The position numbers were made by a program. Below, one piece after another: positions 42,001 through 48,000 of a stretch of DNA of 64,000 nucleotides (the stretch's first letter is position 1; each line of letters starts with the position of its first letter). Source of the DNA: Spirochaetia bacterium (GTDB taxonomy: Bacteria > Spirochaetota > Spirochaetia > SP-2023); contig OZ253665.1 in NCBI GenBank assembly GCA_965263295.1, forward strand, positions 2,343,851-2,407,850. Reading direction: 5' to 3'.

Positions 42001-45000
42001 GCCGCTGCCACCAAACCAAGGAGCCATTCATTTGAGGGCAACTTGCTCGATATTTCTATTGCCTATGGTAATTCATAGCGCTAGCTGATACGATACAGTT
42101 TCCTGATTTTATCCAATTCTTCATCTTCTACCGCGCTAATCGACAGTTCGCGCTTCATGTCGGCAAAAGCTTCCAGGGTTCTGGCGACATGCTGCTCGCT
42201 GTGTGCTGCCGTAGGAACCAGGCGGAACATGACCAGACCGGGAGGAATCACGGGATAAACCACGCCCGTAACGAAAATGCCCTTTTGCCGCAGATAGCTA
42301 AACATCCTGGCGCCGATCTCGTGGCCGCGTGCCGTCGAGGCATAGACGGCACACAATGGCGACTCGCCGTAACCAACCGTGTAACCCAAGTCGCGCAGAC
42401 CTTGTTTCAAAGAGTTTGAGCGCTGCCACATAAGTTCGCGACGTCGATCTTCAGTGCGCAGTAGATGCAAGGTTCGTTGCAGCGATTTGACATAAATCAT
42501 CGGTAGGGACTTTGCAAACACTTGAGTGCGGGCATTGAAAGCAAGCCAGTCGCAAACTTCCCGCTGTGTGGCGGCAAAACCACCGATTGAGGCAAAGGCC
42601 TTGGCAAAGGTCCCCAGCACGATATCAACTTTATCCTGCACGCCACAGTAATCGGCCGTACCGCGCCCGTGTTCCCCCATAATGCCAACTCCATGGGCAT
42701 CGTCGACAAACAGGCGGGCTTTGTATTGATCTTTCAGCGCACAGATATCCTTGAGCCTGGCGATGTCGCCCGTCATGCCATAAACACCTTCAATGGCGAT
42801 CAGCGTGCCTCCTGTCCGCTCTGTGCCGAGACTCTTCAACACGCTCTCAAGATCGTCCGGGTCGTTGTGGCGGAAAAAGCGCAGTTTAGCCCGTGAAAGA
42901 AAGGCGGCATCCAAAATGCAAGCATGGGCCAGTTTGTCGACGATGATAGTGTCCCCTGGACCGGCCAGAGCCGATATCGTCCCCATCACGCCCATATAGC
43001 CGAAGTTAAACAAAATGGCCGCCTCTTTGTCCTGCCATTCGGCAAAAGAATGCTCTAAAGCAATGTGCTCCGAAGTATTGCCACTCATCATACGTGAACC
43101 CATCGGTGCACTGACGCTGTGGGTTTCCAAAGCCTGACGGGCCGCGTCTTTAATACTGGGTTCAGCGGCTAAGCCCAGATAATTATTGACCGACCACATA
43201 ATATAGTTCTGGCCCTTATAGTTCATCTCTGCTGCGGGAATTGAGTCCAGCACAGGACGCGCGACCCCCAGCGGATCATTTTTGCGATACTCACCGAAAT
43301 ATCCGCCATCGCCACGACACTTGTCGAAAATATCTACCATGTTCTCCGTACCCAATTAGCAACCCTTTACTTCACTTTGTAACCTCTGCAGTTTAGGCTG
43401 CAGAGTATTGATAATCATTTTACCGCCAAGGCTTGGCCGGCGCCGTAACGGCGTTTCACACTCTGGCTAAAAGCACTTTAGCAGGCATTGAAACAGGCGT
43501 CTGCTTATAAGAGATGAAACGCAAATAGCGAGCAGTCTACAAATTTACCAGAAAATCACCAGTCTTTTTAAACCAAGATTTACAGCAGCTCCCCAGTTCC
43601 ATCTAAGTATACTTGCGCCATAATTTAAAAGCCAAGGAGTTGTTCTACCTGGCGCACCAATTTCTGTTGCTCCGCAGGAGAATCCTGCAGATCCTGCCAG
43701 TCCACAGTACAAGCGGCCTGAACCTCATGGCGTTGCGGGAAGTCTCGCTCCAGCTGTGCCTGCCCGCCTCCCGTCAAGTGCAGTAGCACAGGTTGCTCTC
43801 TGTCGATCTGCTTGCTTCTGACGGCCTGGCGCAGAGCCGCCGCAGCCACGGCGGCAGCCGGCATGATATCTAACCCTTCATGTATGGCAAAGTACTCGCG
43901 CATCTCAATAACTTCATGGTTTTCCACCGCAAAACAGGCGCCGCCAGACTCCTGTAAAACATCGGACAAACCACCGACTACAGTATAAGGTGGATTCCGA
44001 TTGGCCAATACATGGGCCAAGATATTTTTATTTCGTTCCAGACTATCCGTGGCTTCATAGGGTTGAAACTTTTGTTTCCCATCCCTCCAGTGCTCGACTA
44101 CTGGGATGAATGGCGCATTCTGAGCCAACATCAGCGACAACTGATGTTGCTGTGGGATACAGCCGGCCCGCTTTAGGCGCTTATACATGCCGTAACTCCC
44201 AATCGCGCCGGCCCCACTACCAATAGCCTGAAAATAATAGCGATAAGGTTTTGCGTCTGGTCGCTCCTGAAAACGACTAAATTGAGCGTGCAAATAACCC
44301 ACGCCCAGACCATCGCGCCGGGCTATATTTTTTATGCCCCCCTCAGGTAAAAAGTGCGGCGACTGACACAAGACCTTGGCAAGCTCAATTGCCTCGGCAT
44401 ATTCACTCGGCTGATCATCATATTTGTGCGTACTGGCGACAAACACAACTCTAGAATCTGGCATGATCGGCAAAGAAAGCTTCATTTCCTTCAATGCAAC
44501 ATCGGGCACAACCAAAATGACTGGCAGATTTTCGCGCAGAGCCATCTCGGCAAATGCCCGCGCTGTATTTCCCGCCGACGCTACGACCAGAATTCGTTCT
44601 TCCGCACAACTCCCATGCAAATAAGCAAATACGCTGTACGCTTCAAATTCTTTAAAGGTCGCAGAACGTATGTCGCTGCCTGTGCTCGGATGATACCCCG
44701 AAAATAAGATGTCTAAATCTTTCAAACCCAAGTTTCGGGCTATTGCTTTGCTGCGCAGCACTGCCGGCAGGGAAGCTTGTGCAAACGAACGATACACTGG
44801 CAACCAGTCTCGGTAGCGAAAAAAACTGGTATCTTTGCAATCAAAGTTCAAAGCCTGCCAGGCTGCAGGCTTCACAAACCCAGCTGTTTGTCCTTTAATT
44901 GAATTGTATTCGGCCTCCAGTAAGCTTGAATCCCCGCAATCATCACAGTTGAGCCGAAAGGAATTCTTTCTGCCTCTTCCGGGGAATTTCTTTCCACATG

Positions 45001-48000
45001 CCAGACAGACATAACGGTAATCGGTGCATGACATAAATTAGCTGTTCTCCTGGCGCCGCAACATAAGTTCAAGGCTGTGTTTTGTGGTAAAATCATAAGT
45101 CTCTCTACAAAAATATACTGCAGCCTTCTTTATCAAAATAAATATAAGATTAACCCTGTCAAGAGCATTTTAAAATCACAAGGAACATATGATAAAGAGT
45201 TTCACGTCAATCAATCGTCAAGTTTTTTCTTATTTAGATCAATTCACAAGATATCAATATCAAAACGGTGGTTTAGTATAATAGGTCACACCTATCGTAT
45301 GCGATAGAATAAAAGTTGGCGTGGTCAGACTGAGGACCCGCGCATCAAAACGATAAAACGGCCCAAAGTAAACAGTACGAGCGGCCTTGGAGAGACCAAA
45401 CGAAGGTCCCTTGTGAAACAGAAAAGCTAGTTCCGCCGAGCCCTGACGGGGATAGAAACCCCATTCGAGGTCCCGCTGCGCAACGGCATTATAAGTTGAA
45501 AAGGGAACTTTCAAACGAAAATAGAGTAAATGTTCCAAGCCCAAAGCAAAGGCGATCTCAAACTCAACACCGAGTGAAGTCTGTAAGTAAGCGCTGTTGG
45601 CTTGTGAATTGAATAAAAACAAGTCCCCCGTGTGCCCCTCCGAGAAACCTAGCAAAACCCCCAGCATCATGGCAATACTATTTACCTTCAGAAGAGTAAA
45701 ACGGAGGGCAAATTCACCTACATAAAAATATAGGCTCTGATCGGCAATAACGGTATCTGTCAAGTCTTCCACACCCAATAAAGGTAAACCTGCGCTCAGA
45801 CCAAAACGGGTTGACATCCGGCTGCTCGACCAGAAAAAGCCGTTCAGGCCCAAGTGTAGGGAAGATTGCTCTACTGGTACTAAATTGCCAACATCGTGGT
45901 ATATCTCCTGAAAAGCGGTCACGTTTACGGTTCCGCTAGTGTCCCCCCGATTGAAATCCACACCAATCTGGGCTCGCAATGAAACAACCCCCCCTAGAAA
46001 AAGCAGTAGGATCACCGCATAACAGCGCAGAATCCAATTGCTGTGTCTTATTAATGCATTTACATTCACAGTACGTTCCTTACAGTTAAACTCTTCTAAA
46101 TCTAGATTTTGGGCTTTATATTTTACATTGAATAAAATATTTGAACAATTGTACTATCTTACTTTAAATTGCGGTGATATTAATCTGCAACAAAACCACC
46201 GTTGCCTGCTGAAAAATATCCTAATAATTGCGGCTCTTTTTCCCATTGCAGGACTTGATAGTCGGCCAGACATTGCCCGTCGGCGTTAAAAATCAGACAA
46301 CCCGTAACGCCTGAAAACTGTTGTCGCAAAAGTTCATCATATAAAAGCGCGGGCAATCTTTTTTCATCGTCGCTAGCTTCAATCGTCTTTTTTGCGGCAT
46401 AAGCGAGCAGGCTCACCGCGTCGAAAAGCTCGGCTGCTTCTCGGCTGGCGTGCAGGTGATAATTTTTCTGGTAACTATTGCGAAACTTGAGTAAAGCCTG
46501 CCGTTCGGCCTCATCACGCCGTTGCTTTACAACAAAGTAAGTAGCTACATTTGGTGCACTCAAAGCCTCTAAGTCCAGTGTTTTACTATTCAATATGAAA
46601 TCCAGTCTGTCGAAAAAGTAACGATAAGGGCTGCGGGCCAGGTAGCGGTTACTCTGCTCTGTATGGCGTTGGTTGAGAAACAACACTACTCCTGAGCGCT
46701 GCTTGGACCTCAATACTTTTGCCCTTAATTCACGCAGCAAATCTGAAAGCTCTCGAATTGAACCCTCTCGATAATTACTTCGTCCACCATCCACCCACTG
46801 CAACGCGACCAGTTCAGCCGTATTGGCGGCCCTGGCGCGCATTAAAAAGTCCCTTGCCTCAGCCTGGCGAGAATTGTCCGAAACCACATACAGCGTTTCC
46901 AGCTCGCGCTGCTCGCGGGCAAATTTTAACAGATAAGCGTTAGCTTCATACATGGGTTTTACGATATTCAGCAGCATGACACCGACTTCGGGGCTTGAAG
47001 GAAGCCCATCTGGCCAGGTACCGACGAGCACCTGACTCTGATCGCCGCTGTCGACAAGTTGCCGAAATTGTTGTAAAGCCTCTGTGTTGGCATTCTGCAT
47101 CACAAAACCGACGACGAGAAAACGCTGTGGGTGGCCCTCTACGGAAGGCGCCGCTGTCCGGCTTGGCGTATTGCGTTGCAGCTGACTAACGTACGTTTGC
47201 AGAGCGCCTTGAGAATCAATCTCATTCAAACTCAGGTCTAACACTTCCAGATTTAAGGTCAGATTATTGATATCGGTAACGGCATTAAAATTTTCTAGAG
47301 CCATTTTAGCGGCTTTGAGTCCCCCAATTGAAAGTTGAGTGCTTGGCACCTCGGCACTCAGATTGTCCATTCTCTTGCCAGAGTCCTGCACCAATATCAT
47401 TGTATAAGAACCTACAGGCGGCTTGGAGCAAGCTGACACCGAGCAAGCCAGTAGGCCGGCAATCCCCCCAATGCGCATCCATTTTTTCCACATAGTTCTT
47501 GTATTATTCCCTAAATTTTAGACTGGCAATTATAATTAATTCTTCCGTTAAAGGAAACACTAAAAATTAGCTGTCCCAATAAAGATCAAACAGGGCGTTT
47601 CTATCATTCCTTTTCTGTGATCAGCTGGACTCGGCTAAATGTATATATTTTGAATGACAACCCTATAAAACTTTGCCTTGCTTGAATTGTTCCAAATAAC
47701 TTGGTATTATTTTAAGACAAATTGTAACCTTGCACAGAGGAATAGTATAGTGTCTGTCGTCCCTTCCCAGGAAGAAGTTGAAATTGTTCAAAAGCGTATC
47801 AGTGATGCGATCGCCCAAGCAAGGTTACGTTTTGAAACGATTATTAACAACCATTTATTCTCCGCTGTCATGAATCGCAGTAAAAATTCAGGCGGCTTTC
47901 CCCCGCTGCGCTACTTGGAAACTCTGTTTTCTTATGCAGCTAAAGGCTCCCAGGAAGATAAATTCAGCTATAGCACTGCTTATCAGTTGATTGAGGTTTT

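Follow-up and report, generated by a model that had tools for sequence, protein, structure and literature searches.

Sulfonolipids have roles in gliding motility, in the development of choanoflagellates and in immune signalling of the host; lipid surveys use them as markers of Bacteroidota. According to passages of a 2023 review, their synthesis in bacteria appears restricted to that phylum (PMC10191378). The closest described systems are the Bacteroidota capnine/sulfobacin pathway (CapA, CapB, CapC/KCR) and the bacterial ceramide pathway (Spt, bCerS, CerR). Two cysteate C-fatty acyltransferases (CFATs) are full-length best matches for the spirochaete enzyme described here: CapB/CO-CFAT from Capnocytophaga ochracea (PDB codes 28eh and 28fa; PMC13692747) and SulA from Alistipes finegoldii (7u7h; PMC9304779). 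In excerpts of these papers, a lysine at SulA position 281 (CapB position 280), where Spt has an alanine, is proposed to separate SulA from Spt (PMC9304779), and CFAT specificity is described as not fixed by first-shell residues alone (PMC13692747). Passages of the review also state that Alistipes and Odoribacter use an archaeal-type cysteate synthase, and that within Bacteroidota the two types of lipid may exclude each other (PMC10191378).

The Haliotispira gene pair

The window, a stretch of 64,000 nucleotides from a Haliotispira genome that is 92.6% complete (absences therefore mean "not found"), contains genes for a predicted cysteate synthase and a predicted CFAT (Table 1). The pair very probably makes cysteate and joins it to a fatty acid, the start of sulfonolipid synthesis, and homology and genome context together make a route to a 3-ketocapnine-type base in Haliotispira highly likely. 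If true, Spirochaetota would be a second phylum with sulfonolipid base synthesis, including animal-associated forms. The first two steps and a double-VOC neighbour are shared with the Bacteroidota capnine pathway; the differences are the phylum, the arrangement in one cluster with cysD-cysN in five relatives, and the second, Spt-like system that this genome also encodes. An earlier note had proposed a complete N-acyl-capnine route. The core of that proposal, cysteate synthase plus CFAT, has good support and a wider distribution than was claimed, but the later steps are unsupported, and serC, the genes for sulfite supply and the double-VOC protein had been overlooked. In the literature searched, no title, abstract opening or passage reports capnines or the pair genes in spirochaetes; a list of 13 phyla in Fig. 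4 of PMC11211663 may name Spirochaetota.

In the proposed pathway, CysD/CysN would activate sulfate, CysH would release sulfite and SerC would supply O-phosphoserine. The synthase would swap the phosphate of O-phosphoserine for sulfite to give L-cysteate, which the acyltransferase would condense with acyl-ACP under loss of CO2. The resulting base, of the 3-ketocapnine type, would probably be reduced to capnine by an SDR. In this scheme, the pair would form the committed first stage of the route to capnine-type sulfonolipids.

Both reading frames are genuine genes, and purifying selection acts on them. Against the congeners, pN is 0.21–0.22 and pS 0.84–0.87 for the synthase, and 0.11 and 0.72–0.74, respectively, for the acyltransferase. 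The latter has 419 residues from an ATG start, and would have 424 from an alternative TTG at window position 43355. The two reading frames are adjacent on the same strand, as claimed previously, but their status as an operon was not upheld, since the gap of 284 bp contrasts with a spacing between −4 and 62 bp across nine further lineages; the genes are also separated in two of the three congeners. No minus-strand terminator-like site was found in the gap. Eight promoter-like sites were observed compared with 4.0±2.1 in shuffled sequences, so single sites are no evidence.

Table 1. Features of the gene pair and of candidate partner genes.
Feature	Coordinates	Strand	Remarks
Putative cysteate synthase (g01892), archaeal MA3297/TIGR03844 type, divergent Haliotispira form	window 43625..45034	-	469 aa
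Putative cysteate C-fatty acyltransferase (g01891), CapB/SulA/CFAT type	window 42081..43340	-	419 aa
Intergenic stretch, synthase/acyltransferase	window 43341..43624	-	284 bp
Weak promoter-like site	window 43635-43606	-	
Promoter-like site TTGACA-16-TATTTT	window 45135..45162	-	consensus match only, 10/12; ~100 bp upstream of synthase
CysD/CysN	contig 597249-600028		pass NCBIfam cut-offs
CysH	contig 888135-888932		passes NCBIfam cut-off
SerC	contig 2030037-2031119		passes at least one NCBIfam cut-off
Double-VOC protein	contig 2028681-2029805		tracks the pair
bCerS-like GNAT protein (g00836)	contig 1099298-1100515		single copy in genome; atlas GNAT clusters 376-410 aa
Second, Spt-like oxoamine synthase	contig 2226032
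Candidate 3-ketocapnine reductase (SDR)	contig 560029-560889		by gene linkage
Candidate 3-ketocapnine reductase (SDR)	contig 2088133-2089029		by CapC likeness

Comparison with characterised enzymes

Assignment of the 419-residue protein as a putative CFAT is well supported by sequence, predicted fold and phylogenetic tree. The PDB search values given previously were reproduced (CapB 28eh, E = 4.4e-94; SulA 7u7h, 5.5e-91; serine palmitoyltransferase, SPT, 2.1e-66). Nine of the ten residues within 4 Å of the PLP-cysteate adduct of CapB had been claimed as identical; all ten are, the tenth being C141, a position given as His141 in one sentence and as Cys141 elsewhere in the available text of PMC13692747. 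These are mostly general oxoamine-synthase residues; F113, Y115, C141 and K280 differ from SPT 3a2b. E187, D216, A249, G81 and F278 are likewise shared with CapB and SulA. In contrast, there are three pocket differences from CapB (A82S, F245L and M277V), and identity to CapB and SulA is about 40% (38–41% between the spirochaete acyltransferases and Bacteroidota rows), the comparisons with the CapB and SulA sequences resting on HMMER output. The PLP lysine of the acyltransferase is K247, and the diagnostic lysine is K277, equivalent to CapB K280 and SulA K281. All 35 spirochaete rows, but none of the 14 outgroup rows, have lysine at this position; it is also present in three rows outside the CFAT clade (P0129, P0131 and P0138) and is hence not unique.

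The acyltransferase passes no NCBIfam oxoamine-synthase model, the scores of the models being alike, and the serine palmitoyltransferase cut-offs are unmet (NF047599, 310 of 500 bits; NF047600, 294 of 640; NF047603, 236 of 670). Its AF2 model (pLDDT 92.3) has SulA 7u7h as best Foldseek match with a TM score of 0.90, compared with 0.85–0.86 for SPT. The enzyme falls in a CFAT-like clade apart from Spt, Kbl and BioF (SH-aLRT 98 with 78 rows; UFBoot 100 with 36 of those rows) and lies outside the Bacteroidota branch of this clade (UFBoot 100 for that branch). The spirochaete enzymes form the sister group of the branch holding the tested enzymes, in trees where Aureibacter, Bernardetia and two metagenome rows stand in for the CapB and SulA sequences themselves. 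For a single origin of the spirochaete acyltransferases, SH-aLRT is 95 with two non-spirochaete rows inside the group, and UFBoot is 76 and 46.

The 469-residue enzyme is, as judged from its sequence, a divergent archaeal-type cysteate synthase. It scores 321.1 bits against TIGR03844, 3.8 bits under the cut-off of 324.9; the next family, at 57.8 bits, lies 263 bits below. The previously reported match to the archaeal enzyme was confirmed (PDB code 9k3c, E = 5.8e-72). The catalytic motifs, namely the FKE lysine motif (K128), SAGNT, QAxGSG and NRxPP, are kept in at least 95% of 34 synthase rows, and K128 is presumably the PLP lysine, by analogy with fold-type II enzymes. The scores of the remaining full-length spirochaete copies from the phylum sample are 452–524 bits, and copies adjoining an acyltransferase pass the cut-off. 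The Haliotispira form is only 32–40% identical to non-congener spirochaete copies, has 469 residues compared with about 428, and carries 10 changes at positions conserved among the non-congeners. Its presence in all three congeners at 65–69% identity was verified, as was the existence of threonine synthase as a separate gene (ThrC passes TIGR00260).

Co-occurrence, linkage and sulfite supply

Distribution was analysed in a 401-genome phylum sample and in 41 relatives, 434 spirochaete genomes in all. In the phylum sample, the synthase is present in 24 of 24 acyltransferase genomes and the acyltransferase in 24 of 25 synthase genomes. The corresponding counts among the relatives are 11 of 13 and 11 of 11; no synthase match was found in the acyltransferase genomes G414 (95% complete) and G432 (82% complete). 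Both genes occur in 34 of the 434 genomes, and the acyltransferase in 16 families, although these counts overstate independence because the genomes are related. The earlier statement that the CFAT does not lie within 1.5 kb of the synthase in other classes is wrong: the two adjoin in G196, G276, G241 and G193. A cysD-cysN-synthase-acyltransferase cluster is found in G196, G276, G241, G433 and G418, with cysH directly after it in G196, G276 and G433.

The genome under study contains only three PALP enzymes (TrpB, ThrC and the cysteate synthase); neither a cysteine synthase nor a cysteate lyase of the PALP type is among them, and a search of it for a NIR_SIR domain (sulfite reductase) gave no match. 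Since cysD, cysN, cysH and serC are present and neither sulfite reductase nor cysteine synthase was found, sulfite points to cysteate. A sulfite reductase match is missing in 5 of the 8 acyltransferase genomes that carry cysH, whereas the two cysH genomes with no acyltransferase each have one; a cysH match is absent in 5 of the 13 acyltransferase genomes among the relatives. From the linkage of the pair to cysD-cysN-cysH without a sulfite reductase, sulfate activation in some anaerobic spirochaetes may serve this lipid alone. That cysteate is made for coenzyme M or taurine found no support: the sole ComD-like match is a phosphonopyruvate decarboxylase, and no group II decarboxylase was found.

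Later steps and alternative readings

Among the 11 SDRs of the genome, neither of the two 3-ketocapnine reductase candidates (Table 1) is specific. The gene g01642, previously named as CapC, is one that we take, from gene counting and motifs, to be the SDR at contig position 2088133. None of the three congeners gives a match to it at E≤1e-20, and the CapC assignment is unsupported. By eye only, it shares motifs with the O. rhinotracheale CapC printed in a supplement; both it and the SDR at 2094039 fail the KdsR model. Passages of PMC11211663 describe in vitro reduction of 3-ketocapnine by several SDRs that are unrelated, so 33% identity to CapC assigns nothing. An SDR family linked to the double-VOC gene was detected at E≤1e-55, with a profile that included the genome's own protein, in 12 of the 13 relatives that have the acyltransferase and in 2 of the 28 that do not. 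It was rejected as a dedicated CapC: across the phylum, family f20, which is without the acyltransferase, carries it in 73 of 75 genomes and family f19 in 0 of 17 (only six candidates scored per genome), and published CapC resembles the other SDR type by eye.

The protein labelled bCerS-like, which we take to be g00836 from its motifs, gene counting and the earlier note, matched no bCerS model or structure, and a PDB sequence search gave nothing significant; three ORFs first suspected as bCerS were dismissed. The cited passages name no enzyme for capnine N-acylation. The fuller scheme, in which the pair works with g01642 (as CapC) and an N-acylating bCerS homologue to yield N-acyl capnines, appears improbable. 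Caulobacter bCerS acylates a 3-keto base (a passage of PMC9304779), so the bCerS-like protein could take 3-ketocapnine as a second substrate, and its gene is kept in all three congeners at 76–78%; however, it is not associated with the acyltransferase, occurring in 9 of the 13 genomes with the acyltransferase and in 14 of the 28 without it. By profile, it matched in 6 of 10 acyltransferase genomes (one split) and was not found in G409, G433 and G193 (96–98% complete) or G405 (79% complete). The CapC-like motifs of the SDR at 2088133 are offset by its lack of congener matches and by the several unrelated SDRs noted above. Moreover, the bCerS-like gene is co-operonic with an orthologue of the second oxoamine synthase in G418 and in G415, the latter having no acyltransferase, synthase or VOC match. 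Clustered with the bCerS-like and Spt-like genes are ketosynthase, acyltransferase, ACP, FabA-like and HMG-CoA-synthase-like genes and two for enoyl-CoA hydratases. The resemblance of the bCerS-like and Spt-like genes to the bacterial ceramide pathway concerns this β-branching-type cluster, not the synthase/acyltransferase pair; the bCerS-like gene would mainly serve the second, Spt-like pathway, so the N-acylase is better sought elsewhere than in bCerS.

We regard as quite unlikely a short or unusual acyl donor, the product then being a secondary metabolite, such as a small sulfonated aminoketone, instead of a membrane lipid. The clade includes fusions to fatty-acyl-AMP ligase domains (P0123 and P0124), but their family annotation is that of loaders of long-chain fatty acids. 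In Legionella lytica, a plasmid copy lies beside a ComA fusion, and no N-acyltransferase tracks the pair, whereas the six tested CFATs all accept palmitoyl-CoA (a passage of PMC13692747) and the VOC partner is shared with Bacteroidota. An Spt/Kbl/BioF-type oxoamine synthase using a standard amino acid, with cysteate made for coenzyme M, taurine or sulfur disposal and the adjacency incidental, would fit the alike NCBIfam scores, the small Foldseek margin (0.90 versus 0.86) and the separated genes of two congeners, but is scarcely credible given the near one-to-one co-occurrence, the tight linkage in other lineages, the genome's own Kbl, BioF-like and second Spt-like enzymes, and the decarboxylase results.

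With the pair read as the start of sulfonolipid synthesis, the double-VOC protein is probably a further pathway component. Its gene occurs in exactly the 13 acyltransferase genomes among the 41 relatives, and in 20 of the 401 phylum genomes, all of them among the 25 with the synthase; no match was found in the other five. A broader picture is possible but tentative: capnine-type lipids would be old in many spirochaete lineages, the VOC protein would be a fourth pathway enzyme in both phyla, and the bCerS, Spt-like and β-branching genes would make a second, methyl-branched sphingolipid-like class. If true, both lipid types would occur in one Haliotispira cell.

A PDB sequence search with the VOC protein gave nothing significant, and no function in print was found in the literature searched. 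In fold, it resembles the PcpA dioxygenase 4huz (Z 24.5, rmsd 2.7, 267 aligned) and plant glyoxalase I 6bnn (Z 21.1, rmsd 3.1, 255 aligned), but it is only 13–17% identical to four-module VOC proteins (4huz, 6bnn and GLOD4). The conserved residues are Q7, E68, H283 and E332, a pattern presumably closer to the Q/E/H/E site of glyoxalase-I-like proteins than to an iron site of the His-His-Glu type. Our best guess is a metal-dependent isomerase or epimerase acting on the keto base, and the protein is a concrete candidate for an uncharacterised pathway step. It is common to Spirochaetota and Bacteroidota, and one metagenome locus (L217) unites cysD, cysH, a PALP enzyme, a CFAT, an SDR and the VOC gene.

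The probable cysteate synthase and acyltransferase of Haliotispira

The host assembly is a single 2.41-Mb contig (92.6% complete), with the window at its end. A predicted cysteate synthase and a predicted cysteate fatty-acyltransferase (CFAT) of the CapB/SulA type are encoded next to each other there, and this spirochaete pair very probably performs cysteate synthesis and cysteate fatty acylation, two steps of the capnine (sulfonolipid base) pathway. Coordinates are listed in the table.

The best PDB sequence matches of the acyltransferase are CapB (28eh, E 4.4e-94) and SulA (7u7h, 5.5e-91), with serine palmitoyltransferases (Spt) next at 2e-66, which reproduces the values behind the earlier note's claim that it is nearer to CapB and SulA than to Spt. 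It passes no NCBIfam oxoamine-synthase model. The AlphaFold model (pLDDT 92.3) has SulA as its top Foldseek match (TM 0.90), but the fold decides little on its own since Spt follows closely (0.85–0.86). Nine of the residues that PMC13692747 lists within 4 Å of PLP-cysteate had previously been placed; by sequence alignment to the PDB match, all ten are identical. G81, E187, D216, A249 and F278 (CapB positions) are also identical, and A82, F245 and M277 differ. The lysine proposed in the accessible part of PMC9304779 to separate SulA from Spt occurs in 35/35 spirochaete rows (truncated G106 copy excluded) and 0/14 outgroup rows, and additionally in three unlabelled proteins outside the CFAT clade. 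The tested enzymes themselves are absent from our trees, in which Aureibacter, Bernardetia and two metagenome rows serve as stand-ins for Bacteroidota CFATs. The acyltransferase forms one clade with these (SH-aLRT 98 in a 78-row quick tree, UFBoot 100 in a 36-row subset) and is placed outside the stand-ins' own branch (support 100).

The synthase scores 321.1 bits against TIGR03844 (cut-off 324.9; next family 57.8), and it matches PDB 9k3c (E 5.8e-72). It retains the family motifs, departs from the alignment at ten columns that are conserved elsewhere, and is 32–40% identical to spirochaete copies outside the congeners. Judged by its sequence, it is an archaeal-type, fast-evolving form, the same type that Alistipes and Odoribacter use for sulfonolipids according to the accessible text of PMC10191378.

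In comparison with the congeners, pS is 0.72–0.87 for the two genes and pN much lower (acyltransferase 0.11, synthase 0.21–0.22), so both encode maintained proteins. In Candidatus Haliotispira prima the acyltransferase is 82% identical and the pair is likewise adjacent. An operon had been claimed; the genes are indeed adjacent on one strand, but the gap is long (284 bp, versus −4 to 62 bp in nine other lineages) and they are separated in two of the three congeners.

Immediately downstream of the acyltransferase lies a small zinc-ribbon membrane protein, with a homologue equally placed in one congener (G403). Two genes downstream is an NMT1/THI5-like substrate-binding protein, of a family that includes sulfonate-binding proteins; none of the relatives' loci showed such a gene adjoining the acyltransferase. 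A glycosyltransferase resembling mannosylglucosylglycerate synthase (score below cut-off) has a 34% homologue adjoining the VOC/acyltransferase locus of G431 (G numbers denote other spirochaete genomes).

CFAT-like domains were also seen at the C-terminus of three proteins of 1049–1127 aa (P0123, P0124, P0125), the first two of which begin with a fatty-acyl-AMP ligase domain; one member of the P0123 cluster is named Rhodothermaceae. On Legionella lytica plasmid NZ_CP071528.1 (L139:8989-13860), the gene of a CFAT-like enzyme (44% identity, diagnostic lysine kept) precedes those of an AMP-ligase-ACP-ComA fusion and ComB; this is possibly a sulfonate-lipid module of a gammaproteobacterium with another sulfonate supply.

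Positions of the features discussed
Feature	Numbering	Coordinates	Strand	Remark
Cysteate synthase ORF	window	43625-45034	-	469 aa
Acyltransferase ORF	window	42081-43340	-	419 aa
Zinc-ribbon membrane protein	window	41587-42027	-	
NMT1/THI5-like protein	window	40521-41537	-	
Glycosyltransferase	window	38991-40451	-	
Double-VOC protein	contig, outside window	2028681-2029805		directly behind serC, likewise in G402
SerC	contig	2030037-2031119		NCBIfam cut-off passed
CysD + CysN	contig	597249-600028		NCBIfam cut-offs passed
CysH	contig	888135-888932		NCBIfam cut-off passed
SDR equated with g01642	contig	2088133-2089029		
SDR selected by profile	contig	560029-560889		
bCerS-like gene	contig	1099298-1100515		
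Second-pathway blocks	contig, outside window	1099298-1103611, 530697-532770, 2226032-2229804, 1463895-1464482		
Phosphonopyruvate decarboxylase	contig	~113800-115050		L232:5805-7049; above cut-off

Distribution of the pair and sulfite supply

In the 401-genome phylum sample, the acyltransferase (called at E<=1e-100; next match 8e-83) is found in 24 genomes, all within the 25 that carry the synthase (called by TIGR03844); the sole synthase genome without an acyltransferase match, G070, is 89% complete in 590 contigs. Among 41 relatives the counts are 13 and 11, with all 11 synthase genomes within the 13. In the remaining two, G432 (82% complete) and G414 (95%), even the family model did not retrieve a synthase. 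Overall, the acyltransferase occurs in 36 of 434 distinct genomes, 34 of which also carry the synthase; related genomes are not independent, but the carriers span 16 families. The pair is adjacent in 11 genomes, and in G405 a synthase fragment at a contig end lies beside the acyltransferase. cysD, cysN, synthase and acyltransferase are consecutive in G196, G276, G241, G433 and G418, with cysH directly behind in three; in G193 cysH adjoins the synthase.

In the genomes of loci L078-L088 (families f19 and f32) the two genes lie apart, and the acyltransferase has conserved neighbours of its own: a ketopantoate-reductase-like gene and a 457-aa protein that matches no Pfam or NCBIfam family. In G414 (C1:1322345-1324733, L122) the acyltransferase is intact and the adjoining VOC gene is split by a stop; this single contig gave neither a synthase nor a cysH match, and the pathway there may be in decay or may draw on cysteate from outside.

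For substrate supply Haliotispira encodes CysD, CysN, CysH and SerC, which pass NCBIfam cut-offs. The PALP enzymes of Haliotispira are TrpB, ThrC and the cysteate synthase only, and no NIR_SIR domain was found in its 92.6% complete genome. cysH occurs in 8/13 acyltransferase genomes among the relatives, five of these without a sulfite reductase match, and gave no match in the other five; both relatives with cysH but without the acyltransferase have a sulfite reductase match. The NIR_SIR proteins of two congeners and the five genomes with no cysH match, however, count against sulfite being made for cysteate only. No group II decarboxylase was found in the Haliotispira genome, and its lone ComD-like match is a phosphonopyruvate decarboxylase; the genome may also encode phosphonate production.

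This is a known pathway in a phylum for which our literature search returned no report of it. The accessible text of PMC10191378 limits bacterial sulfonolipid synthesis to Bacteroidota, and the CFATs named in the corresponding part of PMC13692747 are Bacteroidota only. According to PMC11525784, as far as accessible, human-gut Bacteroidota and a single Firmicutes_A genome carry strict homologue sets, and the available part of its supplement 3 has no match to 'spiroch'. In the available portion of PMC11211663, loose homologues are credited to 13 phyla, which are listed in a figure and may include Spirochaetota. Excerpts of PMC9304779 mention a diatom sulfonolipid; those of PMC11052126 name Porphyromonas, Prevotella and Candida as having ceramide sulfonates and do not list Treponema denticola, which was also analysed. 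The available passages of PMC11334938 and PMC11278827 hold nothing on spirochaete capnines.

Reduction step and double-VOC protein

The route had been called complete; its first two steps are well supported, but the reductase named for it is open to doubt, and bCerS was probably assigned wrongly. Haliotispira encodes 11 SDRs. The one equated with the claimed CapC (g01642), by counting genes back from thrC, shares motifs by eye with O. rhinotracheale CapC, but none of the three congeners gave a match to it at E<=1e-20. A profile from 32 VOC-adjacent SDRs instead selects another (261 bits versus 131 and 79). This type occurs in 12/13 acyltransferase genomes and 2/28 other relatives, and lies beside the VOC gene in G405; it is also widespread in families that lack the pathway, and none was found in family f19 among the six candidates scored per genome. 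The reduction step is likely present, and several unlinked SDRs catalyse 3-ketocapnine reduction according to the accessible part of PMC11211663.

A double-VOC protein of ~350–375 aa, overlooked in the earlier note, is a better lead than either assignment. Its gene is at most three genes away from the acyltransferase in G193, G418, G429, G431, G409, G408 and G432, and slightly farther away in G433. Among the 41 relatives it was detected in all 13 that have the acyltransferase (including the stop-split G414 copy) and in no other, and in the phylum sample in 20/401, every one among the 25 synthase genomes. Named homologues are mostly from Bacteroidota. An SDR match was found in 38 of the 80 metagenome loci surrounding the VOC gene, and an acyltransferase match in 4; L217 combines cysD, cysH, a PALP enzyme, CFAT, SDR and VOC. 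The predicted model (pLDDT 94.5) has the four-module VOC fold of PcpA and plant glyoxalase I (Z 24.5 and 21.1), and at least 90% of 114 aligned rows keep each of Q7, E68, H283 and E332. By ligand patterns, these residues presumably fit a glyoxalase-I-like isomerase site, compared by conservation rather than spatial distance. Tentatively, the protein might be an isomerase or epimerase for the keto base, an idea that is testable because two epimers of the reduced product were seen (PMC11211663, accessible part). A dioxygenase is a somewhat weaker candidate, and a lipid carrier is improbable.

bCerS-like gene and second oxoamine-synthase pathway

The gene that we take, from its motifs, to be the claimed capnine N-acyltransferase (g00836, bCerS-like) encodes a protein that falls in GNAT clusters in the atlas. 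It does not track with the acyltransferase, being matched in 9/13 acyltransferase genomes and 14/28 others; by a five-row profile applied to ten acyltransferase genomes, it was not found in G405, G409, G433 and G193, is split in G429 and is present in the remaining five. Its nearest non-congener orthologues (39%; G418, L222, and G415, L223) are each the first gene of an operon that continues with an acyltransferase (AT), ketosynthase, ketoreductase, HMG-CoA-synthase-like protein, two enoyl-CoA hydratases, enoyl reductase, ACP, Spt-like oxoamine synthase and FabA-like protein. The capnine genes are all missing from G415. On these grounds, the bCerS-like gene most likely functions in an Spt-like pathway; in Haliotispira it might also act on 3-ketocapnine as a secondary substrate. 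The operon's oxoamine synthase is 69–72% identical to a second one in Haliotispira (contig 2226032), which has Y at 52 and C at 277; homologues of the remaining members lie in four scattered blocks of the Haliotispira genome. This second pathway could make a methyl-branched sphingolipid-like lipid.
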